Origin: Chiloscyllium plagiosum
Taxonomy: Eukaryota
NCBI RefSeq assembly: GCF_004010195.1
Contig: NC_057755.1
Location: 5,935,474 to 5,999,473 of the forward strand
DNA length: 64,000 nt
Reading direction: 5' to 3'
The translations under genes and the position numbers were made by a program. Every line of letters begins with the position of its first letter. Within the stretch, counting starts at the first letter, position 1. The notes under the pieces are model-generated. The model worked only from the letters and a program-made list of their open reading frames with translations. It searched no databases and had not been told where the DNA came from. Shown in pieces: positions 16,872 to 62,981 of this stretch.

Positions 16872-17939
16872 TCAGTTTAGCTTGTACTTCTTCGAAAGTT
16901 TTAAAAACAGTCTCCAAAAATCTGTAATTGTGTTCTTCAGCACTTCTCTGAATTTCGTCTGGTTCCCTGCTTAAATGGAAATATTTGGGATAGAATGCAA
17001 AAGCTTCAAGATATTTCCAGTCGCTGTGACGATGTATGCAGGTTTTGTGAAATTACTTCATTAAAAAGAGGTGTTCTTTTATCCAGTCATTGCACAGCTA
17101 ATGTTCGCGATCGGACAAAGTATGATGAAGTTGCCCGATACAGAAGAATAAAAATATGTATTGTTTTGTGTTCTGCTTCTCTTGGTCTTGATGATTCTCC
17201 CCATGCATACCTGTCAGTCCATTGCAGGTTGTGCTCCCATCAAAGCCTCGTTTGATTGTCAATGAGTTAAGCAATGTGGTGAATGTGAAGGGAAGCCAGA
17301 CGACGAGACAACATGAAACCAGTCGTATCCCAGTCGTGAGGAAATGAAACCTCCACTTGGTCTGCAGCCACAGAGCATCTTGTTGATTTTTTGCTGTTTT
17401 CAAATGCAAAGAGAAATGAAATATTCTTTAACCTGATCATAACAGAGAACTTTGTTAGAATGGTGTCTGCCAATCCCCTGGTTAAATAGTAGCTTCTCGA
17501 ATTTTGATAGAGAACCTGTCAAATGTGAACGTGATAGTAAACCAAGTAGACAAATGGATGTTACCAGTGGATAAGTACAAAACAAACTTTCAGATGGGAA
17601 AGGGGCTCAGTAATGGAAAGTGAAAGTTAAGAATGAAAATCTGATACAATATCACACTCAAGAGCATAACCAGCAGATCTGTTGTTGCCATGGTCACGAT
17701 ATCGACAGAGATATGCTTCGAAACTCCACTGTTTCCTTTGCAAAGAATTACAATTGTGACAGTTTTCATGTTAAAAGGAGAGAGCACAAAACTTGAACAA
17801 TCGAAATTTTCATATCTAATAAAGAAAATTAATTCAATTATTGGCAACAATCCGTTAATATTGCTCACCAGGAACACCAAATGCAGAAGAATCGAGAAGC
17901 AAATTGGTGTCATATCAACGGAATAACTTGTTGTACCAT
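16872..17939 (-). pseudogene. GPR139-like class A GPCR pseudogene 1 (exon 1 17869-17939, ~100-bp intron, exon 2 ~17769-16872)
   Basis: Exon 1 ends TTT GGT GTT CCT G|gtgag; exon 2 TVTIVILCKGNSGVSKH..MATTDLLV..PI*KF..WFTITFTFDRF..WLPF..LLNSLTI..NQTKFREVLK; stops, frameshifts and a damaged acceptor. Confidence 0.8.
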
Positions 17940-18474
17940 TTTCTGAGAAGTTGAAACTATTGGATGTCTGAGACTCTGTTTGATGCACAAAAAGAATGAC
18001 TGCAATGGTTGCATTTATTGATGCTTCGGTACTCCATACAGTTAATTATTTAAAATTAACATTGGGGTTAACTGCAAAATGCGTGATTCGGATGCTTGTA
18101 TGGTATGATGCATCACAGTGTTGAAGAAAATGTTGCAGCGACATTTTCAGACAGCAGATTAAGCATCCATGTGGTGTTGTTGAATCTGTTCCTAAAGGAC
18201 TGATGACAGCGGCTTCATGGAGCCTGTTCACTCCAAATAGGAACTGATGTAAATCCTACCAAATAGTGGAACTCAGCAAGTACCAAGGTTCAAACGATTA
18301 TTGAGTTCCTCCAATTAGTGATACCTTTCAATTAAACTGGAGCTGCCCGTAACGGTCTCTTATTATTCACACGTACAAGGCCAATTCATACCATCAGTGC
18401 AAGTGACACTTCAACTCGTTAAATGTAACTGTTGCTTTCATCTCACCACTGTTATAAATCACTCCGAGTATAAG

Positions 18475-19035
18475 CTACGATTGTGCAGAATGTTGGTGGG
18501 ACGACGTCTATAGTACAGTGCCCAATTTTAATCAACCTGTTAAATTAAGGCTATTGGTAAGCTGGACGGGGTACAGAAATGATTTACCAAGATGTTACAG
18601 GGAATGGACGGTTTGCCTTACAATGAGAGACTTTTTTTCCCCCACTGGAGTATAGATGGATGAAGTGGTTCTTTTTAGATGTTCAAAAAATCTTGAGGGT
18701 GATAAATAGTGCGAATTACATGTATGTTTTCCTGAGGGTGGGGATTTCAAGAAAAGGATACAGTTTTTTTAACATAAAGGGAGAAAAAAAATAATAGGGA
18801 CATGCGGGGCAACGATTTTAGACATGGTCTGTATGTGGAATGAATTTCTAGAGGTACTGATAGTTGTGGGTACCGTTGCAACACTTAATTAATATTTGGA
18901 AAAAATTATGAATGGGGAAGGTTTGGATGGATATGTGCCAACACAGGCAGACGTGACGTGATCAGTTTGTGAAATTGTCGTGGACTGGTTCAACTGAAAT
19001 ATCTGTATGGCTCTGACTCTGTGACTCTATGACTG
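18475..19035 (+). mobile_element. CR1-type LINE 3' end
   Basis: RT C-terminal remnant and tail ctctgactctgtgactctatgact. Confidence 0.7.
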
Positions 19036-19169
19036 ACTTTGCTCTTTGGTCCAAACGTATAATTAACCTAGAGATCCTGAGATGACTTTCTCAAGGGTTG
19101 GTCATGTTCCGTTGATGCTCCTTTTTTATTATAAATTTTGAAATGAGGACGTGACGCAACACTTTTTAA

Positions 19170-19700
19170 AATGATTGCTCAGATCGTATGGTGAATGTGT
19201 AGTCATTTCTGAGTATCTTATTTAAGGAAGAATGTTAGCCCCGGGGAGAGGTCACAGGGAATTTACCGGAATCATACCAGGAGTGATGGATTTTAGACAG
19301 AAGAAAAGATTAAGTAAGTAAGGATTATCCCACTTGGAGCAGAGAGGATTGAATTGTAATCTAATTGAGGAGATCAAAATTATGAGCAATTTTCAATGCT
19401 TAAAGAAGGATATTCTGTTTCCACCAGTTAGTGTGTCAGCAACGAGGAATCGTAACTTCAAGACAGCAGGCAAAAAAGCTAAGACTGAGATGAGGAGCAA
19501 TTATTTGCTCAGGGAGTTGATTGAATTTTGGGAAGTGCTATCTGAGAGACTGGTGGAGGCAGATTTTGCAGGAGATTTAGCAAGAGAGCTATATATATAT
19601 ACATTTGACAGTGATGAAGTTTGAGAAGGGACCCGAGAGTGAGACGAGCTGAATGGCTGTTTCGTGAACGAATCCAGACATCAGGGGTTATTTTCAGTAA
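19170..19700 (+). mobile_element. Decayed CR1/L2-type LINE 3' fragment
   Basis: LEQRGLNCNLIEEIKIM resembles LE-RRLRGDLIEVFKIM. Confidence 0.55.
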
Positions 19701-20594
19701 CATAATCCTCTTCAGCAACAATGAAATTCCACAGTTCAGTACGTCATTAATGGTCTTGGATTCTCACACTGCCTTGGGTAAACAACCAAAATAATCAAGA
19801 TCTCTTCCACTCTATTTGCATCCACCTCTATCGTGCAGAAGACACAAAGTTGTCTAAACACAAGCTAACAGATTCAAGAGTATATTCTTCCGAACTGTTA
19901 CTAGACATTGGAACTCTCCATTCATGCATTTGAGTTGATTTCTCTCTCCATGTTCTGTTTAGCTTTAACACGATATTCTGCTTTAATATGCTGATGAATT
20001 CATGTATGGTTTCATTTGTCTGAATATGATACAAAACACTATTTTTTCACTGTATCTCGGTCCATATGATAATAAAAACTCAAGTTAAATCGAACTAGTC
20101 ACCTTACCTGGTGCTGGAGTAATGCTTGTCTTCAGTAGAAATGACAATCCTGTTTGATTATTCACTGTGAGTCGAACATATACTGGAACATAGAGTTTCA
20201 ACATTAAGCTCTGAATGATACTAATATTTAAACATTAAAACAGCGTTTCCCATCTCTGTACAATATTAGTCCCAGTACATACGTTTGTTATGTTTTTTTG
20301 CGGTGGTGATAAGTATTTTACTTAAGAAGAAGTAATAGAATTTATTGGGTATATCAGTCTGCAATGTCAACAAAGTCGTTGGAACATTTTTTGAAGCAAG
20401 GAACTCGCCTAAAGCTGCGTGAAAATGCAAACCAAGAGGCTGTGCTAGAGATTTATTAGAATACGAATGATTCCATCCAAATGCTGTAGCCCTTCCTTTG
20501 CCTTTTAGGTGAGATGATTGTTCAGGCCAGTACTGAACTATTTGTGCATAATATAAAGAGGATTCCCACAGACAAGGCCAAATTTACGTCAATG

Positions 20595-20882
20595 CTGCAA
20601 TTTGTCTTCCTGGAGCAATTTCTGCTTCCATCTCCCAAGTTTCATTCGCTTTATGCTGTGCACCTGCATCTACACTACTTAACTCTGCCCTCATCTCTTC
20701 CTTGCCCATTGGAAGGTGACCATTAATTTGATCGCTTCCTGCAATTTGTCTTCCTGGAGCAATTTCTGCTTCCATCTCCCAAGTTTCATTCGCTTTATGC
20801 TGTGCACCTGCATCTACACTACTTAACACTGCCCTCATCCCTTCCTTGCCCATTGGACGGTGACCATTAATTTGATCGCTTC
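20595..20882. repeat. Two-copy tandem duplication, 144-bp unit
   Basis: 20595-20738 versus 20739-20882; 3 substitutions seen. Confidence 0.9.
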
Positions 20883-23204
20883 CAAGAATTAAATCTGTTC
20901 CTCTTCCCAGCTACTTTCCTTTTCCTTCACCGTTGCATAGCGAAGTAGACAACTCAAACTCTTGTTTTAAAAATTGAAATGCGTCCCCACTATACTACTT
21001 CGTGAGTCAACTCGGAGATTAGTTCCATTTCTCCTCTGGTGACACACATATTTTCTGCAAAATATTTCTCTCCTTCCGAAAGTTATGACAATGTGCCAAA
21101 TATTTAATAAATCATGCAGTATGTGGAGTTCCTCGACAGGGAAATTCTTTCCTGTGTTACTACCATGTCATTCCGTGTTAATATCCATCATTGTGCAACG
21201 AATTCTTTGGATTTCAGTTTCATGGCGATAAAATCCGAGAGCTCCTGGCTGATACTTTATGAGATGTCTTTGGGAAGTTTTGAGTTTGCAGTATTAGTCA
21301 AAATTGTGACACGGGATTCGTACTGACATATATAAAAATATCTTCCCAGGAAAGTCTTCCATCAGTCACTCTACATAAGCATTTCCTTAATTCAAACTTT
21401 GAAACACGTTCCATACAAAGCAGAAAAACAAAGGCACAGAAACCAGGAGCAACAAACAGGCGTTTATTGTTACCTAAGAGGTGGAACACTATTTCAGGAA
21501 TAAATCAAGACATCAGTGGAAAGAAATGGAATGGCGAAAAGATAATCATATAACATTCTCAGATGCAGTTTGAAATGAAACTGGTCTGCTATGTTCATTT
21601 GCCCAGCAGACCAGTTACAGGTAGGATCGTGTCGTACAGTTTCTGGAAATTCTGAATATGACAACGTCGTTCCTGCACGAATAATGTGGCCTGTCATTGT
21701 ACAAGGATTCTGTCAGCTTCCAGTTATGTGGCGCTAAGGTCGCAGAGGCAATGTAAATACCTTGTGAAATTTACTTGAGAAGTTTGAGATTGGAGAATTT
21801 ATCAGTATTAGGTTTTCGTTGATTTTTTAAAAAAAGGAAAATAAAATTGTGAAATAGATTAATTCCCGTTACATTCGATCTGAACTTGAAACTGTCACAA
21901 AAGCACAACTGTGATAAACGTTAAAAGACAAGACACCTTGAATCTGTACTGTCACAAAAATGTGTTGTTTTTCTGCGCCGAACATGACAGACACAACGAT
22001 AGACGTCCTTGATGTTCCCAGGTTCAATTTTATCCTGTTTAATGTTTATATTGTAATTTTGCCTGAACTCAGTTTTGGCGAGGTTTTATTTTCTATGGAA
22101 TGGAATTGCAACGTGTAACTATGGGCAAGTTTAAATATAGACAAGTAACTGACAGAATCATAAATGTGTTGCAACGGAGAATGAGGGCTTTTGACCCACA
22201 TGCTTTTCCATTGTACGTTATCAACTTAAACGTGGCATCAATAATACAACATTCCGAGACCAATTCTACAAGATACTGCAATTATAACGTGTGACCGAAG
22301 TATAATTGAGAGTGAAGTCAAAAATATGACTTGACTGAATGTAAAGACGTTCAGTGCATTTATATAATCAGTATTAGTATATTACATTAACTGCATATTG
22401 TCGTTAAGTTGAACAGTGAAGCATTCTCGATTTTTCAATATGCTTCAAATTACATTCATGGTAATCTTATACAGACAATTGAATAAAATACGACAACTCT
22501 TTTTAATTCACATTCTCCTGAGAGGACTCTCCCGGTGTTTCTAGAACTGGATGTCCGTTAATGTGTGTATATAAACATATATCGTTCAATAGATGCTCAA
22601 CAATTTTCAAAACACTTAATGTGAACACGGACTCCTATCCAATCATGGCAGTGCAGTACATGAAGGATACACCAATCAGCCAAGTCATGTTTCATGATCT
22701 AATGTGCTTACCTGAAAAATCCTTGCAGATGAAAGGATTGTCAGATGGACCCAGTATCAGAATAATGGAAGTAGATTGCGGGATAACATGGCAGATTGCA
22801 TTCTATACAGTTATAACAGAGCTTGATGATGGACATGCAGAACTGCTAATGGAAAGGAAGGATCTCACAGAGTGTTGCATGTGTGCTTGATTGGTGCTAT
22901 ATCGTTGTATTTGATGATGGCAGACTTGGATCACTTCAAAAATAAAATTCATGGAAATGCAGGCCAATTGAGGCTTTCCCCCCTTTGTGTTAATTGCACA
23001 TTTATTCGTTGTTCAACTGAAAATTTTAAATAACAAATTTTTACTGGACAGTTCATTTCCAATGTTTACCATCCTGACTTGTATAAGTTGTTCTTAATTT
23101 CCTTCCATTGGCAATGATGTCAAAATGTTGACCACAGTTTATTGCACTTCATAAGGTTGTCAATTCTAAATCCGGATTCATGGCCTGGTAACACTATAAC
23201 TCAG

Positions 23205-23370
23205 AATCGAGACTGTGGAAAAGCAACAACCAAGGAGCAAGAGAATCGATGTTTTGAGCATCAGCTCTTCATCATGTTGATTCTCACGCTCTTCAAGTGT
23301 TGACTGAACGCCTGTGTTTTTCCCTCAACACACTCTGGTCTCTGATCTCAAGCATCTGCAGTCCTCAATT
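23205..23370. mobile_element. Short inverted Penelope-like terminal fragments
   Basis: ggagcaagagaatcgatgttttgagc..cttcatca is the reverse complement of the 26461-type terminus; followed by a forward ..agcatctgcagtc tail. Confidence 0.5.
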
Positions 23371-23423
23371 TAACTTAGTCGGCTGCACTGTAAGATCTAT
23401 AAGTCATTGATTCATTGAATTAT

Positions 23424-24295
23424 TTAAGTGACCAGAGCTTGCAAAGCTTCCTTGATTTTCTCCCTGAACTTGGACTGAGTCGCTGCGTAAATAAGTGTGT
23501 TTGGGCAACAACTTAAATGCTGGAACATGAATCCCAAATTTTGTAATATCACTGTGGACTCGATATAGTCTGTTCCTCTAAGGGTATAACGAAAGAAATT
23601 TGAAACAACCATAAGCAATAGAAGTATGAAAACACCGGAAATGGTGAAAAATAAATTAACAGACTTCTTCCTGCTTTCCATCTCCGGATCGCTCTGTTTC
23701 TCTCCATTGCTGCGGGTTTTCAGTTCCTTACGGACTTGGCTGAATGCTAAAATGTACATTACAGTCAAAGCATTTATCAACAGTAATAGAGTGAAAGGGA
23801 GCAGTGGGGTTCCAGACTGACGAAAGCTGTCATAACCCACCCATACAGCATCAGTGTAAAAATTCGCTTTTACAAAACAAAATTACGGTATATTTTCAAC
23901 AATTGTCCAAGGCCCATGTATAAAGTACATGGGGATGTTACTGAAACAAAGCAGAATGCAGGTTGTTGGAAGAACTACAGCTGCAATTTTCTCTGTGCCA
24001 AATCGTGCTTTCAGGTTATGGCAACAAACAGCTACAAATTGATCAAATGAGAATGCGATAGTGAACCAGACAGAACAGTCTATGACTGCATAACACAAGT
24101 CATAGTGAACACTACACACAGGAGTGATGTTCAGTAAGAACGGTGATGCTTGGTAATAATAAATAACATATCTCAATACCACCTCAAGTATCATGACGAG
24201 AAGATATGCCATTGCCATAGCCAACATGTAACGAGTGGTGTACTTTGAAATGTCACAATGTCCACGGGACAGAATCAGAATTTCCAATAGATTAA
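23424..24295 (-). pseudogene. GPR139-like GPCR pseudogene 2, exon 2 (TM1-TM7), single in-frame stop
   Basis: Acceptor ctcctttctttctcatacag|TT AAT CTA TTG; ORFs 23883-24287 and 23424-23840 are in the same frame and joined across TAA 23883-23885 (P*FC for PWFC); CSVWFTIAFSFDQF, PLLPF, DPEMESRKKS, SCCPNTLIYAATQSKFRE. Confidence 0.9.
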
Positions 24296-25436
24296 CTGTA
24301 TGAGAAAGAAAGGAGAAACTGCTGAAATTTATTGAGCAAACGTGTTGTATGTCTGACGCAGTCAGTGCAGCAGAATAGAATGCAGAGTATGAAAAGCTGG
24401 ACGCAATGTGAGGATTTCTGGTGTGATCGAATGTGAAAATTCCAATGCCATCTTTAAAATAATTTCAGATTTACCAGATTTTCTGCGAGTGGAGAGAATA
24501 AGTAACCTTTCCCTCAGGCGGTGCCTCACTGAGTGTGGGAAATGTATAGGCTCATCTCTGAGTCATGCATGGATTTTCTGAAGAACAGATTAGATCTTGA
24601 TTTCTTAGTTCAATGAGCTGAGGAGTGGAAGGTTGAATTTAATTTGGATAAAAATTAGATATTATATATTGGTCAAGCAAAACATTTTAAGACTTGCATA
24701 ATTGAAAGTCGGGCCTTTGGTAGCATTTTAAAACACAGAGAACCTGTTGTTCAAATTCCTAATTCTTTGAAGTTTGTGCCACATTTAGACAGGGTAGTTA
24801 AGATGTCTTTTAGTACACTTACCTTCATTGTTTAGAATTTTGAGTATAGGAGTTGTGATCTCATGCTGATTTTTGTGCAGAATGTTAACGAGGTCTCTAC
24901 TGTTGTGCTATGTCCAGTGCTGCGATTGAAAGAATATCATTAGCCCGGAGAGGCTTCAAAAACTATTTAACAGCATGGTGCTATGGATAGTGGCTTTGAA
25001 GTATAAGGAAATGCTGAATAAACTCGCAACTTTTTTCATAGAGCAGAGGAGTTTGCGGGATGACATGTCTTCTTTTCTTTTGATGAAATGGGACTACTTT
25101 GCATTTTTCTCACAGGACAGAAAGTAGAGCCCCTCAAAGATTAGCAAGGTGGTCTTTGTGTGGAGCCGCGGAAAATGGGGGAGATACTAAATGAGTATTT
25201 TGCATCACTATTTACTGTGGAAAAGGATATGGAATATAAGGATTGCAGGGAAATAGATAGAGACATTTCACAAGATGTCTATACTACAGAGAATGAAGTG
25301 CTGGATGTCCCGAAACGCGGAAAGGTGGATAAATCATCAGGACCTGATCTGGAGTACCCTAGAACTCTGTGGAAAGCTGGAGAAGTGATTGCTGGGCTTC
25401 TTGCTGAGATATTTGTATCATCAATAGGTGAGGTGC

Positions 25437-26383
25437 NNNNNNNNNNNNNNNNNNNNNNNNNNNNNNNNNNNNNNNNNNNNNNNNNNNNNNNNNNNNNNNN
25501 NNNNNNNNNNNNNNNNNNNNNNNNNNNNNNNNNNNNNNNNNNNNNNNNNNNNNNNNNNNNNNNNNNNNNNNNNNNNNNNNNNNNNNNNNNNNNNNNNNNN
25601 NNNNNNNNNNNNNNNNNNNNNNNNNNNNNNNNNNNNNNNNNNNNNNNNNNNNNNNNNNNNNNNNNNNNNNNNNNNNNNNNNNNNNNNNNNNNNNNNNNNN
25701 NNNNNNNNNNNNNNNNNNNNNNNNNNNNNNNNNNNNNNNNNNNNNNNNNNNNNNNNNNNNNNNNNNNNNNNNNNNNNNNNNNNNNNNNNNNNNNNNNNNN
25801 NNNNNNNNNNNNNNNNNNNNNNNNNNNNNNNNNNNNNNNNNNNNNNNNNNNNNNNNNNNNNNNNNNNNNNNNNNNNNNNNNNNNNNNNNNNNNNNNNNNN
25901 NNNNNNNNNNNNNNNNNNNNNNNNNNNNNNNNNNNNNNNNNNNNNNNNNNNNNNNNNNNNNNNNNNNNNNNNNNNNNNNNNNNNNNNNNNNNNNNNNNNN
26001 NNNNNNNNNNNNNNNNNNNNNNNNNNNNNNNNNNNNNNNNNNNNNNNNNNNNNNNNNNNNNNNNNNNNNNNNNNNNNNNNNNNNNNNNNNNNNNNNNNNN
26101 NNNNNNNNNNNNNNNNNNNNNNNNNNNNNNNNNNNNNNNNNNNNNNNNNNNNNNNNNNNNNNNNNNNNNNNNNNNNNNNNNNNNNNNNNNNNNNNNNNNN
26201 NNNNNNNNNNNNNNNNNNNNNNNNNNNNNNNNNNNNNNNNNNNNNNNNNNNNNNNNNNNNNNNNNNNNNNNNNNNNNNNNNNNNNNNNNNNNNNNNNNNN
26301 NNNNNNNNNNNNNNNNNNNNNNNNNNNNNNNNNNNNNNNNNNNNNNNNNNNNNNNNNNNNNNNNNNNNNNNNNNNNNNNNNNN
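25437..26383. other. Assembly gap (N run)
   Basis: Ns. Confidence 1.
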
Positions 26384-26590
26384 GTACTCTATACTACTTT
26401 CTCCCCACCCCCATCCTCCTCTCATTTATCTCTCCACCCTTCAGGCACTCTGCCTGTATTCCTGATGAAGGGCTTTTGCCCGAAACGTCGATTTTCCTGC
26501 TCCTCGGATGCTGCCTGAACCGCTGTGCTTTTCCAGCACCACTCTACTCCAGAATCTGGTTTCCAGCATTTGCAGTCATTGTTTTTACCT
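26384..26590 (+). mobile_element. Penelope-like element terminus with hammerhead-ribozyme-like core
   Basis: CTGATGA-A-GGGC TTTT GCCC-GAAACGTCGATTTTC at 26462-26496, after a pyrimidine-rich tract. Confidence 0.7.
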
Positions 26591-28231
26591 GGTAAGGACA
26601 AACCAGGGAATTATAGACCAGTAAGCCTGATGTCGGTGGTGGGCAAGTTGTTGGAGGAATTCCTGAGGGACAGGAGGTACATGTATTTGGAAAGAGAATG
26701 ACTGATTCCGGATTGTCAACATGTCTTCGAGCGTTGGAAATCATGTCTCACAAACTTGATTGAGTTTTTTGAGGAAATAACAAATAGGATTGATGAGTGC
26801 AGAGCGGAATATGTGATCTATATGGACTTCAGTAAGGCGTTCTGTAAGGTTCCCCATGGGTGACTGATTAGCAAGGTTAGACAGGGAGAACTAGCCATTT
26901 GGATACAGAACTGGCTCAAAGGTACAAGACAGAGGGTGGTGGCAGAGGGTAGTTTTTCAGACTGGAATCTGATGACCAGTGGAGTGCCACAAGGATCGGT
27001 GCTGGGTCTCGACTTTTAATCATTTACATAAAGGACCTGGATGCGAGCATAAGAGGTACAGTTAGTAAGTTTTCAGATGACATCAAAATTGGAGATGCAG
27101 TGGACAGCGGAGAGGGTTACCTCAGATTACAACAGGATCTTGCCCAGATGGGCCAATGGACTGAGAATTAGCAGATAGAGTTTAATTCAGATAAACGCCG
27201 AGGTGCTGAATTTTGGGAACGCAAATCTTAGCAGGACTTATTCACTTAATGTCAGGTCCTTGGGAGTGTTGCTGAACAAAGAGAATTTGGCGTTCAGGTT
27301 CATAGCTCCTTGAAAGTGGAGTAGCAGGTAGATAGGATAGTGCAGAAGGAGTTTGGTATGCTTTCTTTTATTCGGCAAAAGTTTGAGTAGAGGAGTTCGG
27401 ACGTCATGTTGCGGCTGTACAGGACATTGGTTCGGCCACTGTTGGAATATTGCGTGCAATTCTAGTCTCTTTCCCATCCGAAAGATGTTGTGAGGCTGAG
27501 AGATGACTTTGCAGAGGTTTACAGAATTATGAGGGACATGGATAGGGCAATTAGACAACGTATTTTCCCTGTGATCGGGGAGATCAGAAATAGAAGGCAT
27601 AGCTTTAGGGTGAGAGGGGAAAGATATAAGAGAGACCTAAGGGGCAACCTTTTCACACAGAGGTTGATACGTTTATGGAATGAGCTGCCAGAGGAAGTGG
27701 TGGTACATTTGCAACATTTAAGAGGCATGTTGATGGGTAAATGAGTACGAAGAGTTTGGAGGGATATTGGCCGTGTGTTGGCAGGTGGGACTGGATTAAG
27801 GTGGGATATTTGGTCGGCATGGATGGGTTGGACCTAAGTGTCTGTTTCCATGCTATACATCTCCGTGACTATGATGTTATGATCATGACAATAAGAATGT
27901 CTGAATGTGCTGACAGAAGCAGGGTAGGACTGTGAGGGAAATCTAGCTGGCATACAAACATAAGGAATCTAATTCTCTCACGTTCCATTCTACACCTGAC
28001 CACCTTTCAAAATTTATCATAGTGTTATTAAAATAATTTAATTCTAAATATGCAGAACGTGTATTCAGCAGATTCTTGAAAATTGGGCCAGTACTAATTA
28101 TTCTGAACGAAGTTTCACATGTACTGCATCTCATACCTGCACAAAACACATAACTCTTTAACATCCCGCAGGACAAAAATTCCTTCCGTTTGCAGTCAAC
28201 CCTCAGTTTAAAGGTAAAGGTTTCCTTATAG

Positions 28232-28700
28232 AGTTACAGATATAGATAGCATGGAAACTGAATATTCAGTCCAACTCGGCCATGCTACCACTTATCTGAG
28301 ATTAATCTGGTTCAAATTGCCAGACGTTGCCCCATGTCCATCTCAACATTTCCTATCAAATGCGCATACAGTAATCTTTTAAATATGATCATTCGATCAA
28401 GCCCAACGACCTCCTTTGGCAGCTCATCCCATATAGCACCAGGCTCTGCATGAGTAAAAGAGAATCCATTTAGTCTCTTCTAAATCTTTCCCTTCTCACC
28501 TGAAACCTATGCCTTCTACTTCTGAAACATTCCACCCCAGGGAAAAGACATTGTCTATTTAGCTAATCCATGCTGTGCATGGTTTTGTGCATCTTCATAA
28601 TGTTACCTCTGATCCTCTGACGCTTGTGGGAAAACAATCACAGACTATTCAGCGTGTCTCTGATTCTGAAATATTCAAACCCCTGACAACATCCTTTTTA
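28232..28700 (-). mobile_element. CR1-type LINE 3' end
   Basis: Reverse-complement similarity to the 3' ends at 7000-7350 and 27500-27875. Confidence 0.7.
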
Positions 28701-29984
28701 ATCTATTCAGAACTCATCCACGTATCAAGACGTCCTACATATATCTTGGATTCCCAGGACTCAGAAACCAGTCTGGAGTACAATGCAAAGTATCGCAAAA
28801 GAACGTCTCCAAATCTGTGGAAATCCAATGTTTCCATCAATAATAAAATAGTCTTTTACGCCGGTCTCCCGATCATTGATATTCTCAGAAGCCTGCGTGC
28901 ACAAACACGTATACACACGCGCACACACACACACACTCAAATCTGTCCGTCTCAGTGTCAACTATATTCGCATTTGAACTATGGTTGAAGAGTTGCTTTT
29001 ATTCAGGTGAATGTTGAAATCCTTACTCACACTTCATTGTCTGTGTGGTTGTGAGCAAATCACTTTCCCTGGGTCGAGCTAAGATTTGGTTAGCCACAGA
29101 AATAAATAATGCTTTGTTGTTGTTGTTTTTTTTTTGCAAATCTCACAGAACTACAGCAGCAATGTTACTTGCCGATTATCTTCTAATATTTAATGTCCAG
29201 CTGTGGCCAATGTCTATAATTGTCACAATAACGGTGACACACAAGAACTGGAATATGCTAGTGTTCCAATATTGGAGAGAAACTTTATTTTTTTTCTTTG
29301 GAGGAAACGAGTCAATCCTATAGTTATGACTGTGTGACAATCAAAAACCTCTGTTGATGATTAGCTTTCTTACTGCTGATAAAACCTTATGTATATTGAA
29401 AAAGATTTGCGTCTGATTAAGGGAATCTTTCATGTGCTAAATGAATTTCAGTGCAAGCCCAAACAAAAATGACATCCTCGTGCTCCAGTATTTTTATATT
29501 CAAAAGTTTTACCAGTGTTGACTGAGGTAAAGCACCCTTAATGATCAATCAATATTCAAAATGACAATTAGCCTGCTTGAAAGCAAGAAATAAATTACAG
29601 AACACATTCGTTATTAATTTGTCAGTTGGTACTATTTGTAATTTGGTAACTTCATAAAGCCTCCGTTTATATGTCAGACATTGTCCTTATTTGAAATAGT
29701 GACCAGACCCGCAACATAATATCACCCAGTATTGTGTTCAACTCGGAACTTCCAAACTCGAAACATTCCCAGAATTCTTCCACAAAGTAGTTGTTGTGGA
29801 CGATGCTGCTCCATCTTTAGTGATACATGTAAGCATATAATAGAACAAATAACTACAAGTGCTGGAAATCTGACACTGAGACAGAAATTTGCTGGAGACA
29901 GTTAGCAGTTCTGGCAGAATACGTGGAGAGAGAAAACATAGCAGACATTTCGTTTTAGGCATGAGATTTCTTCAGAAAAGATGA

Positions 29985-30535
29985 ATGTTGTATGCTTACT
30001 TCAATGAGCTAGATGTATAAGAGCAGTAAAAATTTATTGCTTCTGCATAATGCATTGTTGACACCACATCTGGAGTCCAGTGAATTGTTTTGGTCACCTT
30101 CTTGGGAAGAAAATGAGTAATTTCATTGAATGCAGTTCAGACAAGTAAAATTATCCCTGCTCATGTGGGGTTGTCTTATGTGAAAAGTTGGGAAACTTCT
30201 CACTCCAGAATAGAACAATGCGAATTGATTTCATTGAATCACACTAGATTCTTAAGGGGTTCAACTGGGTAAATGTTGAGAAGATGTTATCCATCATTAA
30301 AGATTCTCAGGTCAGAGGCCATACGCATACAACAAAGGCATGCCAATTTGCGACTGTGATGGAGATTTAATTATTTTCTCTCTCAGAGGTTTATGAATCT
30401 TTGGAAGTCCTTACCATAGAGCGTTGTGCCAGCAGAGCTGTTTAGATAATTTAAAACTGAGATAGATTCTTGATCAGTTGGGGAATCAAAGGAACGGGAA
30501 AGGACATAATCGTGAATGGACATAATGTCGTATCA
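29985..30535 (+). mobile_element. Decayed CR1/L2-type LINE 3' fragment
   Basis: ALLTPHLESSELFWSP-like RT remnant; tctcagaggtttatgaatctttggaa. Confidence 0.55.
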
Positions 30536-31868
30536 ACATTTATCTTTTTGTATGGGTGATTTAGTGAGAAGATACAACTTTATACACGTTCCACTGTATT
30601 CTGTACTTGCGTACTGTTGACAATAAAATCTAATACCGATTGTAATTCGACGGGTTTTACTTCGCATGTCTCCAGACCAAAATGAAAACTTCAGTGTGAG
30701 ACTTTGCAGCGAAGTTGACAATGAAGTGGTTTTCTCGCGAGATATTGATAATACACGGGACATCCACGGAAAGATTCGAAACGGACAGACTTCATTGGGT
30801 GAAATTTAAATGTTGTTAATTCGCACCACTTCAAAGGTATCACCATCGTAGCACTTAAAATGCATCTTGTTGGTGAAATATAGAGGAATGAATTTCGGGA
30901 CATGTGCCAAATGCTGGAAAGTAGAACTACATAAATTTATGATTTCGAGTCAGCATGGAGGATTTTGAAGCAAGTGTTTGTTTCCGTGCTGTACAAATAT
31001 GTGGCTGTGAATCTATGACTCGTCTTTTGATGAATACTTGAGTTAATTTTCTGATTGATGAGACCAATGCAATTTCTGAGTTAGATTTCTTCATCATATC
31101 GGCTCAGGACAATCCTAGACTTGAATCGTAAAATTGGCAAAATGCCTCATAATGGCCATTGTTGTTAAGGTTGAGTTAGGCCACTCTTCATGTAAAGCAA
31201 ATAGAGACCATTGAACATGGAGATATCGCTCTTGGCATAATGTATTTTCATTTTCCATTCTGGACAGTTATTTCTTGATGGAACGGAAGTGACACGGCTG
31301 GTGGGATTTGCACTTCAGTGAAAGTCATTAGTCGATATGAAAAATTCACTTTTTATCAAGAAAAACTGGAATTATATTTAAGTAAAATCCAAAAAGAGAT
31401 GTGCAGCACAATAGAACAGAAAAGCTGACTGCAATGAAGGATATTATAGAATTAAACTGTCTTAATTAATTTCAGTGCGAAGATAACCTCTACTGTAGTT
31501 GCACAGACGAAAAACTACAATAATACCACAGCACTGTGGAAAACTATTGTAATCAGAACAAGGAACCACACATCACAGAAATTAATAGGAAAACATTGTT
31601 CCAAAAATGTCTTTCTGAGTATGCCTGCATTAGCTGATGTCCAACTCAGTCATACTTAGCATGACATAAAATCGATGCAAGCAAATACTTGATCAACAAG
31701 CAGTAACTCGATATCACGTAAAGTGATGGATAAAATTACAGATGCAAATCATCTCATTTGATCCAACAAATGAACTTGTGATATTAGGTCTGTATCATAA
31801 TAGTCCACAGGTTACATTATCAGGAATGGTTTAAAATATAAAAGTCTTCGATTATAATTCTCACTTAC

Positions 31869-31981
31869 CAGGGAGACCCAGGACATCAAGGATCATGTAG
31901 CACACTTCAAGAGGTAGTACATTTGTAAGCAATATCTGCAATAATGTGTGTCACTTTGTACTGCAACCAATCCCTATGCAT
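31869..31981 (-). pseudogene. GPR139-like exon 1 (frameshifted); possibly partner of the exon 2 at 24295
   Basis: ..LEVCYMILDVLGLP G|gtaagt, same phase-1 donor context as the other exon 1 copies; ATG at 31981 is out of frame with the donor. Confidence 0.65.
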
Positions 31982-32239
31982 TTCTGTTGGTATTGTAGAA
32001 ATCACAGATCTATTTATTCATATCTCCTGAACTCTCCATGGTAATATTGTGCTTATGACAATTATCAACGTCATGTTTTCCACTAACAAAACAAAGATAA
32101 CCAGATTACAACCATGTGTTAGATTCCATTTCATTGACGTGATACGTTGCACACACACACACAATTATGCAACAACGACAAAGGAAAAAGATGAACTTGC
32201 AATCTGACAACAATGGTGTTTACTACTCCAGCATCAGAG

Positions 32240-32695
32240 ATAGAGTCATCGAGATGTACAGCATGGAAACAGACACTTCGGTCCAATCCGTCCATGCCGA
32301 CTCGCTATCCCAACTCAATATTGTCCCGCCTGCTATCACATGGCCCATATCCCTCCAAATGCTTCCTATTCATATAGACTTCTAAATGCCTTTTAAAAGT
32401 TGCAATTGTACAAACCTCCACCACGTCTTCTGGCAGCTCATTCCATGCACGTACGAACTTCTGCGTGAAAATGTTGCCCATTAGCTCCCTTTTACATCTT
32501 TCCCCTCTCACCCTAAAACAATGCCCTCCAGTTCTGGACTCCCTCACCCCGGGGAAAATACTTTGTCTATTTATCCTATCCATGCCTGCCATAATTTTGT
32601 AAACCTATGTAAGGACATCCCTGAGCCTCCGCCGCTCCAGCAAAACCAATCCAAGCCTGTTCAGCCTTTCCCCGTATCTCAAATCCTCCAACCCT
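32240..32695 (-). mobile_element. CR1-type LINE 3' end
   Basis: ORF 32305-32592 GMDRINRQSIFPGV.ESRTGGH..GNIFTQK..WNELPE. Confidence 0.85.
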
Positions 32696-32741
32696 GGAAA
32701 CGGAGGGCTTGGAGGACCGGGTCATGGCGGACGGAGGTGTA
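32696..32741 (-). mobile_element. Inverted 46-bp Penelope-like RT piece
   Basis: Minus strand reads YTSVRHDPVLQALRF, the segment just upstream of, and overlapping, the start of the + strand fragment at 33186. Confidence 0.7.
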
Positions 32742-32743
32742 AA

Positions 32744-33900: not shown

Positions 33901-34096
33901 CTGGTTTGCTTGAGTCAATAATTTCAATGCAATTTTTCATCATGTAATTTTCAACTGAGTTAATACATTAGTCAGGGGAAACTAGTGCGGTATGGCAGAC
34001 GTACCAAGCTGATTAGATTAGATTGAATTAGATAAGGATCTTTCTGCTTTGACTCCAATCATGAAGAAGAGTACGGTTATGAACTGTCTCTTACAG

Positions 34097-45560: not shown

Positions 45561-45564
45561 TGTT

Positions 45565-49448: not shown

Positions 49449-50499
49449 GGCACGGATAAATGCATCAAATATGTTTCCATTCAAGGTTACTATCCCTCCG
49501 TGCTGTGGGAAATTCTCTGCCTCAAATTACGAGTTATGACAATCACTGAAACTTTAATTTCTACCAGGTGAGCACCTTCAGGGAATACTGAAATTTCAAC
49601 ATCGTCAAATTAAATTTAGAAAAACACAAATTTACACATTTACAACCGCTAGTTCAGCCGCTGTTGTGCTAAAATATATTTAGCATTTGGAGTCACTAAT
49701 ATAATTTGGCAGATCGTATTTATCCCATTCAACATTGAAATGACCCATTGTGCAACCTGGTTTGCTTATCCTTACGACAGAATATAAATTTAAACAGGAT
49801 TGGGCATGTTAAAGTTGAACTTAAAAACGAACATGGGAACACGGTGAATTCCCACTTTACTCAGTAACCTCACATCTGACTGTATACTGAGAGGAAATCT
49901 GATCAACATGTCCTTCAAGTCCTGAGAGAAACTGCGCAAGGGTGAAATATACTTGGTATTGTTTGCAATAATTCTGTAACCTGATTTACAAAGTAATGAT
50001 TACTAACTCGGTAAACTCTAATCCTCTGCATCAATGTCACGTCGTCAGCAATGCTTCCTGCTTTTGTCAACCGAACCAGCAGACACGATCCTCCCTGATA
50101 TGTGAAACACGTACCCTCACAATCTCTGGCAAAACCAGATGATTGAATCTTTTTCACCACTTCCTTCACAATTAGTGCATTCATCATCTATGTTAGTGCG
50201 TACGGACGTTCACTCAATAACATTCATATGATGTAAGCTGCTCTGTTTTAACTTCTTTTCACTTCACCTGAGGACGTACTTCAACAGCTTATTATTATAA
50301 ATAACCCCATTGCATAACCGTGTGTCGTAAGATTTCTGACATTGTTATGTATCAAGGCAGCATTGTGTTCATAATTAACCTTCGCATCTTTAATTATAAT
50401 GCTAATAATAAGGCGCTGGAGGAACTCGGTCGATCTGGCAACCTCTGTGGAGAGAGAAACAAACTGAACATTTCAAGTCTTGTGATGAGCATGCAGCTG

Positions 50500-52059: not shown

Positions 52060-52445
52060 TGTTGAGGCTTTGGCTGCATTACCGTTTCTCTGCAAAAGCA
52101 GCTTGTATTGGAGGAATGCTACATTATCTTCTGCCTGGGCATCCCATAGCCCTGAAGACTCAAACTGGAGTTCTCTAAATTCAAAAAACTCCATCCCCAT
52201 CCCCCGACTCCCTTCCCAGCTCCTCTGGGTCCATTCTACGGCTCCATGCAACCAACTCGATTCTGTAGTTCCATTGATCATTTACTTGTCCTCAGTATCC
52301 CCAGTTCACAACCCTGACCTCACCATGACCTTTATCTTCAGCTCCTTCTACACCCATGCCCAGTCCTGAAGAATGGTTACACCCAAAACATCGACCTCTG
52401 CACTTCCTGGTGCTGCCTTACTTGTGTTCTTCCAGCAATCTTGCC
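52060..52445 (+). mobile_element. Penelope-like 3' end with decayed hammerhead-like core
   Basis: LEE..IIFCLG..PE..N.EFS-like endonuclease C-terminus; C-rich tract; CTGAAGAATGGTTACACCCAAAACATCGAC. Confidence 0.6.
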
Positions 52446-52800
52446 TATCAAATCTTTCAGACATATGTTAGTGTCCAGCCCAGTCCAAAATGAACTGAAA
52501 GCCTGCAGCAATGGAGAGAAGCAAAGCAACATAAAGATGCAGAACAGGCGAAGTCTGCCATATTTCTTATCAGCATCTCTGGGTCGCTTGATATTTCAGT
52601 GGTTGATGTTGCTCATTATTTTTCGTTACACATTTAGAGAAGCATGTTACATAGACTCTGAAATAATATTGCAAACTTTTAGATTCATGCTCTTGAAATT
52701 GAAATTCTGGCAAATACAATTATTTATACAGCAGCTCAGTATACGTTCAGGGAGAAAATTAAGAATTTTTTGAATGTTCTCATAATTTACCCAATTAATA
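52446..52800 (+). pseudogene. GPR139-like GPCR 3' fragment (ICL3-TM7)
   Basis: RHMLVSSPVQNELKACSNGEKQS..MQNRR..FRYTFREACYIDSEIILQTFRFML parallels ELKTRSNGEKQSDPEMESR..FRYTLRGTDYIESTVILQNLGFM of copy 2. Confidence 0.8.
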
Positions 52801-57105: not shown

Positions 57106-57143
<38 letters not shown>

Positions 57144-59387: not shown

Positions 59388-60211
59388 TGTTTACATAAAC
59401 ATATACACACACAAAAGCACATATGCACACACATTTATCCACACATGCGCACACATACATGTACACACGTACACACATACGCACGCATGAATTCACACAC
59501 ATGTACACACATGAATCCCCTGACTCCTCGACTTCACAAAAATAGTGCCACAGCACAGTACAATGGAACAGATGGACACACTAGATAAAATGCAATTTCT
59601 GAGTAGCGCCATTTTACTTAGTGACAGTTAATGAATTGCACTCAAGACCACTAAACCCTGATGGATATTCACAAAGTACAACAGCAATGTGATGAACGCT
59701 TCTACTCCCAGTTGTGACACGGGTTTTGTAGAGCTACATGAAAAGATATTCCGAGGATTGTCAGACCTCAATGTTTCTGAACCAGTGGTTGTGCATTTCT
59801 GTTTACATAAACATATACACACACAAAAGCACATATGCACACACATTTATCCACACATGCGCACACATACATGTACACATGTACACACATACGCACACAT
59901 GAATTCACACACATGTACACACATGAATCCCCTGACTCCTCGACTTCACAAAAATAGTGCCACAGCACAGTACAATGGAACAGATGGGCACACTAGATAA
60001 AATGCATTTTCTGAGTAGCGCCATTTTACTTAGTGACAGTTAATGAATTGCACTCAAGACCACTAAACCCTGATGGATATTCACAAAGTACAACAGCAAT
60101 GTGATGAACGCTTCTACTCCCAGTTGTGACACGGGTTTTGTAGAGCTACATGAAAAGATATTCCGAGGATTGTCAGACCTCAATGTTTCTGAACCAGTGG
60201 TTGTGCATTTC
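59388..60211. repeat. Two-copy tandem duplication, 412-bp unit
   Basis: 59388-59799 versus 59800-60211; about 4 substitutions seen. Confidence 0.92.
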
Positions 60212-62107
60212 AGCACTGCAGGACAATGCTCCAAGGAAATAAATCAATATCAGGAAGTCTGTGAGCAACACACAGCGGTTTATTATAATCTAAAATGAGG
60301 ACCAAACGTTCATGGGAAAAAAACGACATTTCAACAAGCAAGTGCGTGCCTGAAGTGATCATGTAACACCATCAGATGTGGTTTCAGAATTTAAAGATCT
60401 GAAATGTTTACACTGATTTTCAAAGCAACCAAGATGCTGCAAGGATTATGCAGTACAATTTCCGGAGACCCTCAATAAGAACAGTTCTTGCTGCATTAAT
60501 AATGTGTTCCATCATTGTACAAGCAATCCGTCTGATTTCCGTCCAGTCGCAATAAAATCATAGAGCCAGTGACTGATACCTTGGTGGGATTTTATTAGTA
60601 ATATCAAATTTGCAACATTGGTTAACATTATATTGTCCAAATTTGTTTTAATAAAAGGCGGAAATCAGAATATGAACTTGACATAATTCCAGTTTCATTT
60701 AATCTATACTTGGCAACCAACCTCAGTAACACAACTCCAATCAACATTGAATGAAAAAAAACTCATTAATTATGTACTGTCACCATGTCAACTCAAGCAT
60801 CACGGACTGAACGATACAACTAATCGATGTTATCAGATCCTTCTATGAATGAGACCATTTAAACTTACACTGTCATTTTGGATGGATTCTCCTCAGGCCA
60901 TCTTCGTTTTCTCTGAAGTCAATCTGCCACAAGAAACTGTGAAAAATCAGTTCCATTAATCGAGGCAGTTAATTCACAGAATAACCGAAATTGTTCCAGA
61001 TTATAATGTGGGCATTCGGCCCATCGTGCTTTCTAATTGTACATCATCATCTTAATAATGACAATAGCAGTAAAATGCAACGAGAATAATATTCAACATG
61101 CCACAATGGTAAACTGAGAGGGAAATAAAATTAACAGTGAAGATTAAAATATAATTTCACTGAAACGAAAGGAAACGTTTGCATTTTGTGTATTTATATT
61201 CTGTACTTAATTGCTCTATTTCAAAAATACTTAATAAATAAAATATCATTATGGATATACTTAAACACTAAATAGGTTCAGTTCTTTACAGTTGCATACG
61301 AAGCAGTGGAGACACTGTGGAGTGTTATTCAATCCAGCTAAACAAACAAATATATTTCTGACTTGTACGAAATGCTATTTGCATGTATCTATTATGATCA
61401 ATGTTAATTGCATTTTGAAATTACATTAAAATATTGCTGACTGTTCAGTACTCTTGCACTGTAGTTGCCTGAGCTAATCTTAAGGACCAAAAGGTAACAG
61501 GTCGACCGAGTGTCAGAACAGTTGGAGGAGATTGCAACGAATATGAAATAATGCTTTCTGCACCATTGTTATACCAGAGCTGGATGATGTACGGGCAGAA
61601 CTGGAGATGGAAATGAAGGATTTGAAAGAGCGCTGATTCAGTGATTTATTCGTGATTGATCATTGTATTGGATGATGGCTGATTTCTATCACTTCAGATA
61701 TAGGATTGTAAAATTGTTTAAGGATATCTAAATGAAAGAAACTATTGCAGAGGCGGGGGAAAAGTGTCACTGCAAATATACTTACAATTATTTAAAATCC
61801 ATTCACTTCTGAAGATTTCTATAATTTTTAACTCTTGTTTTCCATTTATTATTGGCACATTTATGCAGACCTCATCTGCAAAGGTGAAAATCGCATTTGT
61901 GCTGGAGTGAACATTTCCAATGTTGACCTGTATGAGGTGCACTTAATTTTCTTCCCACCAAGCAATGTTTATTTGCGATGCCATCATAACTATGACCATA
62001 GTTTACTGCATCTAAGAAGAAGGATCAATCGGATTTTTATGAACTGGAAACGCCGTAAAATATTCGAGTGCGCTTTCAGATGTACAGCTTCTTCATTTAT
62101 TGGGAAA

Positions 62108-62981
62108 TTATGAAACCAGAGATATACAGACGTTCTTGATTTTCTCTGTAAACTTGAACTGAGTTACTGCATAAATACATTTGTTTGTGCAGCAACTTAA
62201 ATTCCGCAACATGATTCTGAAATTTCCAAGTATTATTTTAGATTCAGTGTAATCTATAACTCCAGTAGAGGAAAGAAAGGAGTTTATTACAAATATTAAA
62301 CATAGAACTATGAAACTACCAGATATGGGTGTCCTCTAAAATGGCCGCCTTCCTTCTGCTTTCCATCTCTGTGTTTTTTGTGTTTCTAACCACTTCTTTG
62401 AGCCTTCAACTCCTTATGGACTCTGCTGGATGCTAAAATGTGTCTGACAGTCAAAGCAGTGATCAACGGAATTAGAGCAAATGGAAGAAGTGGGTTTACA
62501 GCTTTAGCAAAATAATCATATCCAAACCATCTGCGATCAGTATTACAACTTGGTTTTGCAGAACAAAACCATGGTACATTGTTAACTATCTTCTAGGGCT
62601 CATAATTAAAATAGATGGGAACATTTTTCAGGCGAAGCAGAATGCAGGTTGTTGAAAGCACCACAGCTGCAATTTTCTCTGTGCAAAACAGTGCTCTTAT
62701 TTTATGGCAACAAACAGCTGCAAATTGATCAAAAGAGAAAGCCATGGTGAACCGAACAGAGAAATCTATGACTGTATCAAACAATGCATTGTGGACACTA
62801 CATGCAGGAGTGATGTCGAGGAAAAATTCTGGAGTTTCATAATAATAAACAACTTTTCTCAACATGACTTCAAGTATAATGACCAGAAGTTTTGCCATTG
62901 CCATCGCCACGGGATAGTGAATTGTGCACTTTTAAATGCCACAATATCCACGGGATAGAATCATAACTGCCAGAAAAATAG
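62108..62981 (-). pseudogene. GPR139-like GPCR pseudogene 6, exon 2 (exon 1 not seen in window)
   Basis: cacaagcag|CT ATT TTT CTG GCA GTT; ILSRGYCGI*KC; DITPACSVH..DFSVRFTMAFSFDQF; YEP*KIVNNVPWFC; PLLPF..ALTVRHILASSRV; SCCTNKCIYAVTQFKF. Confidence 0.88.

Follow-up and report, generated by a model that had tools for sequence, protein, structure and literature searches.

The genes considered here are related to GPR139 and GPR142, orphan class A receptors that respond to L-Trp and L-Phe. Beside these, Rinne et al. 2019 (PMC6504862) placed GPR210A/GPR210B, three gene sets from coelacanth, gar and fish that are without a human orthologue; sharks are absent from that survey, in which the words 'shark' and 'cartilaginous' have no matches. 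Cartilaginous fishes have been reported to have a 'relative paucity' of GPCRs, with MAS1 and its relatives absent (PMC8455134), and a further study credits them with only 20-62 known olfactory receptor (OR) genes (PMC10869828). Here we describe eight dead copies of a class A receptor family of cartilaginous fishes in the shark Chiloscyllium plagiosum. By analogy with known chemoreceptor families, its intact members on balance probably form a chemosensory repertoire.

The window, meaning the whole stretch of DNA analysed (64,000 nucleotides), was searched throughout with a profile of 70 elasmobranch proteins and with frameshift-aware alignment. As the first-pass annotation had proposed, this recovered six near-full exon-2 copies and two partial copies on both strands, exactly eight in all. 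The controls, the window reversed and five block-shuffled versions of it, gave 0 profile matches. A ninth candidate at 60486, a match to the SCCxN motif, was rejected because no profile match was found there. The features of the locus are as follows.

9555..49607, forward strand: segmental duplication block, colinear with C46:6,028,963-6,068,672, to which 31,283 bases align at a mean identity of 82.4%.
16926..17760, reverse strand: exon-2 pseudogene of a divergent subfamily (the 16.9-kb copy), old and heavily decayed, with 5 stops and 4 frameshifts.
23406..24296, reverse strand: exon-2 pseudogene (the 23.4-kb copy) with a single premature stop, at 23883.
31869..31935, reverse strand: decayed exon 1 of the 23.4-kb copy, with a phase-1 GT donor and an intron of ~7.6 kb.
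32032..32043, reverse strand: O/E-like promoter site, decayed, that lies upstream of the preceding exon 1, the factor being putative.
32928..33195, forward strand: partial copy covering the TM2-TM4 region, located by profile and frameshift-aware alignment.
34096..34966, forward strand: exon-2 pseudogene (the 34.1-kb copy) with 5 stops and 7 frameshifts.
38271..39167, reverse strand: exon-2 pseudogene (the 38.3-kb copy) with 7 stops and 6 frameshifts.
40713..40779, reverse strand: decayed exon 1 of the 38.3-kb copy, with a phase-1 GT donor and an intron of ~1.5 kb.
46633..47527, reverse strand: exon-2 pseudogene (the 46.6-kb copy) with 1 frameshift near 47001 and 1 stop at 46788.
49406..49472, reverse strand: exon 1 of the 46.6-kb copy, with a phase-1 GT donor and a non-ATG where the intact sibling starts.
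49574..49585, reverse strand: O/E-like promoter site belonging to the 46.6-kb copy, decayed and differing by one change from that of the sibling, its position read by hand from the sequence.
52417..52796, forward strand: partial copy covering TM5-TM7, with 3 frameshifts, 2 in common with its twin at C46:6,080,353.
62129..62976, reverse strand: exon-2 pseudogene (the 62.1-kb copy) with 2 stops and 2 frameshifts.

All eight are disabled, in agreement with the earlier reading: the near-full copies carry 9, 1, 12, 13, 2 and 4 exon-2 lesions in order from 16.9 to 62.1 kb, and the partial copies are incomplete. The label 'exon 2' was also correct, as seen from the three exon-1 remnants with phase-1 GT donors listed above; for the 62.1-kb copy, no exon 1 was found within 8 kb. 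The motifs said to be shared by the copies stand as a family-level consensus, but not letter for letter, with exact matches in the six near-full copies numbering 3 for CSVWFT, 3 for PLLPF, 3 for KFRE, 1 for DPEME and 0 for LSRGxCGLS. The least damaged copies have intact siblings elsewhere. That of the 23.4-kb copy lies at C46:6,039,294 (90% nucleotide identity), and an alignment read by eye indicates that exon 1 of the window copy is frameshifted relative to it; the nearest to the 46.6-kb copy lies at C46:5,846,396 (87%). Since the frame of the 46.6-kb copy ends at the identical residue on a second contig (C33414, 99% identical), misassembly is an improbable cause of that lesion.

The copies have spread by multi-gene block duplication, and several were already dead when copied. 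Parts of the 9555..49607 block recur at 5.83-5.85 Mb, and two further stretches, 5.87-5.89 and 6.01-6.02 Mb, carry parts of it in inverted orientation. The 16.9-kb copy has 3 lesions in common with its block twin at C46:6,032,950, the 34.1-kb copy 4 with its twin at C46:6,051,687, and the 38.3-kb copy 8 and 7 with twins at C46:6,057,337 and C46:5,833,461, respectively. On a smaller scale, the partial copy at 32928-33195 is a local duplicate (~290 bp) of the 34.1-kb pseudogene, with 91% nucleotide identity and identical frameshifts. The window exposes the engine of the expansion, in which live and dead genes are copied together.

Beyond the window the family is very large. Exact counts of two motifs in the assembly gave 1,289 and 1,908 against 0 and 25 for controls, the overlap of the two being determined by hand from the places listed, and at least 387 stop-free family frames were listed. 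We estimate that the assembly has 4,300-7,100 copies, of which 1,400-2,600 have intact frames, haplotype duplicates included; this corresponds to an estimated 1,000-2,000 intact members within a total of thousands. Around the window, 464 kb held 46 copies with 6 intact, and across 1.264 Mb sampled 14 of 63 copies were intact. The birth-and-death array suggested by the first-pass annotation is borne out by the copy counts, the broken fraction and the duplicated dead copies; the lineage-specific expansion is far larger than it guessed, and the intact paralogues it wished to see counted are many. Its mention of numerous 'probable GPR139' models in shark annotations likewise matches the RefSeq labels. 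The RefSeq/UniRef entries 'probable G-protein coupled receptor 139' from sharks, rays and Callorhinchus milii belong to this family (57-69% identity to the 46.6-kb copy), and a chimaera member (P0270) nests inside it. Other automatic labels are 'vasopressin V2 receptor-like', 'capa receptor-like' and 'CCR3-like'. A literature search that took in some of the supplements found no paper describing the family as such, and the 12 of 24 whale shark supplementary files searched held no match. The family is apparently undescribed, masked by a misleading automatic label.

The family consists of class A (rhodopsin-like) GPCRs. Four of its proteins scored above the cut-off for PF00001 (7tm_1), at 66-107 bits, and an AlphaFold model has seven helices plus helix 8 (mean pLDDT 69.9). 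Foldseek gave TM-scores of ~0.6-0.7 to class A receptors without discriminating among them, GPR139 ranking 4. Activation motifs are retained almost throughout 120 proteins (D 119, R 120, F/Y 119, W6.48 118, N7.49 118, Y7.53 118, Cys3.25 116). Each gene has two exons, the first being short (~22 codons) and giving a short N-terminus.

Among PDB entries, GPR139 matched the family profile best (E 1.7e-16) and is the closest solved structure by sequence, in keeping with the earlier note's 'GPR139-like'; GPR139 and peptide receptors are the nearest solved relatives by profile, and the ESM Atlas returned as leads only the family's own clusters and FMRFamide-receptor-like ones. By sequence, tree and a shared phase-1 intron just before Asn1.50, which the family has in common with this genome's GPR139 and with a conserved paralogue, the family belongs in the GPR139/142/GPR210-like clan, which holds its nearest vertebrate relatives, with GPR139/142 a sister group in the tree. 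The proposal that the copies are themselves GPR139/142 members did not hold. The genome has its own single GPR139 at C21:58.73 Mb, 85% identical to the human protein but only 20-24% (~22%) to family members, and the AU test rejected the family plus GPR139 as a single clade (p 2.6e-10; LG+G4, as for all trees, without a mixture model). GPR139/142 lack the cysteine at 3.25, whereas the family has it (116/120) together with an ECL2 cysteine. Nor is the aromatic amino-acid site shared: the Trp/Phe-binding residues of GPR139, all six of which are kept in 5/5 GPR142 proteins, occur in the 120 family proteins 0 (E108), 9 (F109), 16 (H187), 118 (W241), 2 (R244) and 2 (N271) times. GPR139 orthology was rejected on the tree and shared amino-acid ligands on these residues, and the trees set the family apart from GPR139/142 as a lineage of its own.

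Two other genes lie closer. In the tree, a gene conserved in coelacanth, teleosts and sharks is nearer to the family than GPR139 is; its single shark copy, at C26:36.6 Mb (64% to coelacanth), stands apart from the expanded family, and it fits the description in PMC6504862, so it is likely the GPR210 group of Rinne et al. 2019. An amphibian and sturgeon 'probable GPR139' gene (Pleurodeles XP_069092602, Xenopus tropicalis P0408) is sister to the whole family with support of 100/99, and has the same DPEM-RR motif in ICL3. No separate one-to-one shark match to it was found, the best reaching 30-36%. Unlike the family it is apparently unexpanded: each species among the 20 amphibian clusters listed has it a single time, and these sequences are 66-74% identical. 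Among other receptors, no OR, V1R, T2R or class C Pfam family matched at E 0.1, 7tm_1 alone passing its cut-off, and no OR or TAAR was among the best 60 of 113 PDB matches; by profile match the family is not a member of OR, TAAR, V1R, V2R or T2R. The available part of the flatworm PROF1 paper (PMC3261222) showed no link to the GPR139-related clan.

Variation within the family is concentrated where residues face the pocket and in the extracellular loops; the scaffold on the G-protein side (DRF, W6.48, N7.49, Y7.53) hardly varies. At seven pocket positions named in the GPR139 papers, mean entropy was 3.05 bits, compared with 1.13 for other TM positions and 1.54 for outer helix halves, a value reached in 0 of 20,000 random draws. 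Among 33 disjoint pairs of intact genes, dN/dS was 0.38 overall, 0.29 at non-pocket TM sites, 0.49-0.58 in the pocket (p 0.012 against random TM) and 0.66-0.80 in extracellular loops, and no site class exceeded 1; intact genes are under purifying selection.

OR promoters combine a TATA box with an O/E site. In the family's promoters a TATA box at a set position is accompanied by an EBF/O-E-like site, which would be bound by EBF/Olf-1 factors. Using a consensus that we take to be the O/E site and allowing 2 mismatches, we found it at -135..-75 in 13/31 held-out promoters, even though sequence lying farther upstream cannot be aligned; upstream windows gave 0-2, and none of 300 shuffles gave more than 4. 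According to PMC5608512, Lhx2 as well as Ebf motifs are present in promoters and enhancers of mouse ORs. The homeodomain site typical of OR promoters showed no overall enrichment here (11/31, with shuffles reaching 11), and adjoins the O/E-like site in 4/31. As a predictor the composite of O/E-like site plus TATA performed poorly by itself, 2/21 matches preceding a recognised exon 1, and three shark V1R/ORA loci taken as a positive control had uninformative upstream regions.

One subfamily is transcribed, being present as polyadenylated RNA in a single-cell library of unknown tissue. Within the 2% of that run that was read, no read matched at ≥95% the intact gene closest to the best copy of the window; no exon 1-exon 2 junction was found among the joints and loose ends listed, the second gene's exon 1 lying outside the stretch, and the sequencing runs listed for the intact gene tested included no RNA run. 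Run X6 had 0 reads on both stretches, and run X7, presumed to be RNA, was left out of the evidence, as were summed contig depths in run X1 as a measure of copy number. A catshark olfactory top-50 list contained no GPCR at all, known receptors included, and so is uninformative.

The pocket variability and promoter module lend the chemosensory idea indirect plausibility, and it is favoured because family size and turnover match those of chemoreceptor families; the short N-terminus and the selection results also speak for it. Like the OR, TAAR, V1R/ORA, V2R/OlfC and T2R repertoires, this is a large birth-and-death family in clustered arrays on several chromosomes, with many pseudogenes, a hypervariable pocket on a conserved scaffold and an EBF-like promoter site. 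It differs from them in sequence and in a coding region split by an intron in TM1. In our reading, a two-exon class A family has multiplied to thousands of copies in the cartilaginous fishes, and its intact members on balance probably serve as chemosensory receptors, each variant being predicted to detect different ligands, perhaps peptides or derivatives of amino acids carried in the water. Expression would be in olfactory cells or in chemosensory cells of another kind. More specifically, and more tentatively, sharks and rays may possess a fifth, unrecognised olfactory or chemosensory family, derived from a GPR139-related orphan that is single-copy in amphibians and comprising 1,000-2,000 intact genes with an EBF-type, OR-like promoter module.

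The same promoters could also serve an immune or barrier-surveillance repertoire, expressed in leukocytes or epithelia and sensing microbial or damage peptides in the manner of mammalian formyl-peptide or MRGPR-type receptors. EBF is a B-cell regulator, and in B-cell progenitors it recognises an essentially identical motif (literature comparison). The O/E-like site is flanked by forkhead-like and C/EBP-like sites, named for the factors that presumably bind them, and hypervariable pockets with fast turnover would fit immune receptors too. The reported absence of MAS1 and its relatives (PMC8455134) would leave such a role vacant. The transcripts in the single-cell library of unknown tissue would also be compatible with it. 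Known vertebrate immune GPCR families have tens of members, not thousands, and the pairing of TATA box and O/E site resembles OR promoters; we consider an immune role unlikely.

Less likely again, by analogy with rodent MRGPRs, is peptide and irritant sensing in neurons that are somatosensory or related to the lateral line (trigeminal, dorsal root or skin sensory cells). EBF factors are active in many neurons, and the peptide receptors among the nearest solved relatives, as well as the missing MAS family (PMC8455134), agree with such a role. Known MRGPR expansions are, however, far smaller than the shark family.

Genomic drift would account for most of the expansion if segmental duplication on small, repeat-rich chromosomes had added copies without new function. 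This would suit the ~3/4 of sampled copies that are broken (49/63), the block duplication of dead copies and the death of every copy in the window. The selection results make this improbable, with dN/dS between intact paralogues at 0.38 overall and 0.29 in the scaffold. Drift also fits poorly with variation focused on ligand-facing sites, a promoter module conserved across otherwise unalignable DNA, and diverse subfamilies kept in sharks, rays and a chimaera. Carriage by transposable elements, with copy number reflecting element activity instead of host function, might explain one subfamily scattered over many chromosomes at 76-82% protein identity, but was rejected as very improbable: across 30 copies the homology of the flanks tapers off in the upstream direction, with no shared sharp termini (the one sharp boundary seen is specific to the query copy), the intron is kept, and no transposase-like long ORF was seen by eye beside three copies (200 kb).

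The small OR complement and GPCR 'paucity' attributed to cartilaginous fishes sit oddly with the reputation of sharks for smell. Whatever the family's function, an estimated 1,000-2,000 intact class A receptors overturn the claim of paucity. The apparently single-copy sister gene of Xenopus and axolotl offers a tractable model for the ancestral function. If the chemosensory reading is right, a chemoreceptor repertoire of vertebrates would have arisen independently in this family, at 20-50x the known olfactory repertoire of sharks and rays and near the largest mammalian OR repertoires, and the question of shark smell would become directly testable.

A profile of 70 elasmobranch homologues, combined with frameshift-aware alignment, recovered the eight copies placed by the first-pass annotation, six near-full (16.9, 23.4, 34.1, 38.3, 46.6 and 62.1 kb) and two partial (32.7 and 52.4 kb); none appeared in five shuffled windows or in the reversed window. 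Every copy is disabled, as had been proposed, with 1 to 13 exon-2 lesions in each near-full copy. Damage is mildest in the 23.4-kb copy (23406..24296), which has one exon-2 stop and a frameshifted exon 1. The motifs described as shared hold as a family consensus, but match exactly in at most three of the six near-full copies. Genes of this family have two coding exons, with an exon 1 of about 22 codons and a phase-1 intron immediately before Asn1.50. Of 14 intact genes, 12 have a recognised exon 1 at 1.5-6.3 kb upstream, and the window itself contains three decayed first exons. In the C8 subfamily, exon-1-like pieces with a longer N-terminus were observed tens of kb from exon 2 (C8 40.06 and 40.17-40.25 Mb; stretches L073, L084-L091), some without a nearby exon 2, in a 22-kb inverted duplication (92%).

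Around the window we counted 46 copies in 464 kb, six with an intact exon 2. The segment at 9.6-49.6 kb has a colinear counterpart 80 kb downstream, to which 31 kb align at 82% identity; portions recur three further times, two of them inverted. The 38.3-kb copy has 8 of its 13 lesions in common with one twin, the matching copy in another block, and 7 with a second; the 34.1-kb copy has 4 of 12 in common with its own. Because twins carry common lesions, entire blocks must have been duplicated with already dead genes inside. The 23.4-kb copy has an intact twin and, unlike the lesion-sharing copies, was disabled after block duplication. Against their nearest intact siblings, dN/dS is 0.92 for the 38.3-kb copy and 0.73 for the 46.6-kb copy. 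The proposed birth-and-death array is upheld: what the window shows is a graveyard of dead members from a receptor family that is real and very large. Other repeats observed in the window are as follows:

2364-3970 and 12123-13750, an element of ~1.6 kb present twice in opposite orientation (82% identity between the copies), both copies being flanked by terminal inverted repeats of ~370 bp
20595-20883, a 144-bp unit present twice, 97% alike
59388-60211, a 412-bp tandem duplication of CA-rich sequence at 99% identity, which may be either recent or an assembly artefact

The 1.6-kb elements may be decayed Mutator-like DNA transposons, as suggested by a weak match to MULE transposase that falls below cut-off (E 0.01).

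Protein searches of the genome returned 5,496-8,437 first-look candidates, and two exact motifs occurred 1,289 and 1,908 times versus 0 and 25 for controls. The second motif was also present in 52 of the first 63 listed first-motif matches, counted by hand, which places the union near 2,100 loci. Among the matches listed in four genome searches are at least 484 distinct loci, at least 387 of them with a reading frame free of stops over 295-400 residues (one row scored so on the strength of a separate protein search). Contigs C1-C51 hold 259 of the 387, and realignment of 92 found 82 intact. Ten intact genes found independently in sampled regions had no overlap with the 484-locus list (0/10), which must therefore miss a large part of the family. 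The motif count calibrated on sampled regions gives an estimated 1,400-2,500 intact frames out of 4,300-7,100 copies, and recapture about 2,600 intact frames; as the samples are small and partly non-random and haplotype duplicates are counted in, our working range is an estimated 1,000-2,000 distinct intact genes. A small contig (C33414:742-1281) matches the 46.6-kb pseudogene at 99%, its reading frame stopping at the identical residue, and on this basis counts are probably inflated by haplotype duplicates among the unplaced copies. Copies are densest on C8, C37, C44, C46, C49 and other small contigs, with none in one 100-kb sample of C47.

Transcription was evaluated by aligning roughly 2% of the reads in a single-cell poly(A) run (X5; same species label, no tissue assignment) at 80% likeness. 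A C8-subfamily gene received 211 paralogue reads, with sense coverage across the coding-region end and 3' UTR. Nine reads end in an A-run about 30 bases past an AATAAA whose position is kept in 10 of 14 copies compared; this A-run may be genomic in some paralogue. Antisense paralogue reads over the intron-exon 2 boundary (L075:6900-7450) accompany the sense polyadenylated 3'-end reads. For the 46.6-kb copy, the intact sibling (C46:5,846,396) drew 151 reads, mostly on repeats, and none at 95% or above in this sample. The sense and polyadenylated C8-subfamily reads show transcription and processing of some family members.

The scaffold hardly varies among 120 family proteins, and the most variable positions are those aligned to the GPR139 ligand pocket. 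Mean entropy is 3.05 bits at seven TM pocket positions, drawn from two papers (PMC12775434, PMC5430874), versus 1.13 at other TM positions; a wider 18-position set, picked after viewing the alignment, is given less weight. Among 95 intact exon 2s, 33 disjoint pairs give an overall dN/dS of 0.38; by region it is lowest in non-pocket helices and inner loops (0.29), intermediate in the pocket (0.49-0.58) and highest in outer loops (0.66-0.80). These values show purifying selection on intact genes, with ligand-facing sites relaxed or diversifying; no site class exceeds 1, the mark of positive selection. The Trp/Phe site of GPR139 is not kept in the 120 proteins, so the amino-acid sensing suggested earlier is not transferable from GPR139.

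Many shark models do carry the label 'probable GPR139': it is attached to nearly all of the top 120 out of 568 homologues, every one of them elasmobranch. Twenty divergent representatives include 18 from sharks or rays and one from a chimaera. True GPR139 is a separate gene, matching human at 85% and family members at 20-24%. Relatives closer than GPR139 emerged when proteins clustered at 50% were searched with a profile: one gene from a salamander, one shared by coelacanth and teleosts, and several from amphioxus. In a 42-row tree (LG+G4; outgroup, six proteins taken as invertebrate FMRFamide-receptor-like), the family is a single clade (99/92) with the salamander gene as sister (100/99). Both join a group with an anchovy gene and the gene conserved in coelacanth, teleosts and shark (99/95), amphioxus genes branch next (96/93), and GPR139 and GPR142 fall outside; a clade of the family with GPR139 is rejected (p 2.6e-10). 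OR, TAAR and TRHR were compared by profile alone. In the 20 amphibian clusters listed, each species has the sister gene a single time; it also occurs in sturgeon, and no one-to-one match was found in the shark genome. Given this amphibian and sturgeon gene, restriction to sharks, rays and chimaeras applies to the expansion and not to the lineage. Rinne et al. 2019 (PMC6504862) name GPR210A/B in the GPR139/142 neighbourhood, and a GPR139 review ties that receptor to MIP, proctolin and FMRFamide receptors; the accessible parts mention sharks and cartilaginous fishes, respectively, nowhere. A conserved, apparently single-copy shark gene (L182, G000:C26:36,600,769-36,601,743), at 64% to coelacanth 'probable GPR139', likely represents the GPR210 group in sharks; it keeps Arg6.51, and Trp6.48 is absent from its bony-vertebrate relatives. 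The family is catalogued under the wrong name and stands outside GPR139, OR, TAAR, V1R, V2R and T2R.

Upstream of exon 1 in 12 intact genes, a TATA box near -90 was conspicuous, together with a site of TCCC core lying 15-30 bases farther up. A particular 26-bp satellite was looked for above the window's first exons and not seen there. Forty further upstream regions gave 33 with exon 1, 32 with sufficient upstream DNA and, after removal of one near-duplicate, 31 held-out promoters. With a general O/E consensus, and position windows fixed after all promoters had been viewed, an O/E (EBF)-like site was called at -135..-75 in 13 of the 31; windows farther upstream gave 0-2, and none of 300 shuffles gave more than 4. 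Forkhead-like (9/31), C/EBP-like (7/31) and TATA (9/31) motifs were also positioned, no homeodomain enrichment was seen overall in this set, and DNA farther upstream had no common 9-mers at the median. Four promoters of one subfamily (L236, L255, L257, L259) carry TAATT and then directly a TCCC site, an arrangement that resembles, going by the published description, the composite of adjacent Lhx2 and Ebf sites at mouse OR enhancers (PMC5608512).

The literature searched, which excluded most subscription papers and some supplements, held no publication on this family, and by term search GPR139 goes unmentioned in the main text of four genome papers (catshark, zebra shark, whale shark and bamboo shark). 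EBF is reported to be active at mouse OR genes and the identical motif is bound in B-cell progenitors (PMC5608512); the latter would suit an immune receptor repertoire, which we consider unlikely. A somatosensory receptor set is more doubtful still. The whale shark paper describes cartilaginous fishes as having a paucity of GPCRs (PMC8455134), and Policarpo et al. report 20-62 olfactory receptor genes in 10 such species and a vertebrate OR maximum of 2,399 (PMC10869828). The most likely reading, towards which we lean by a little, is that this family constitutes a putative chemosensory receptor repertoire.
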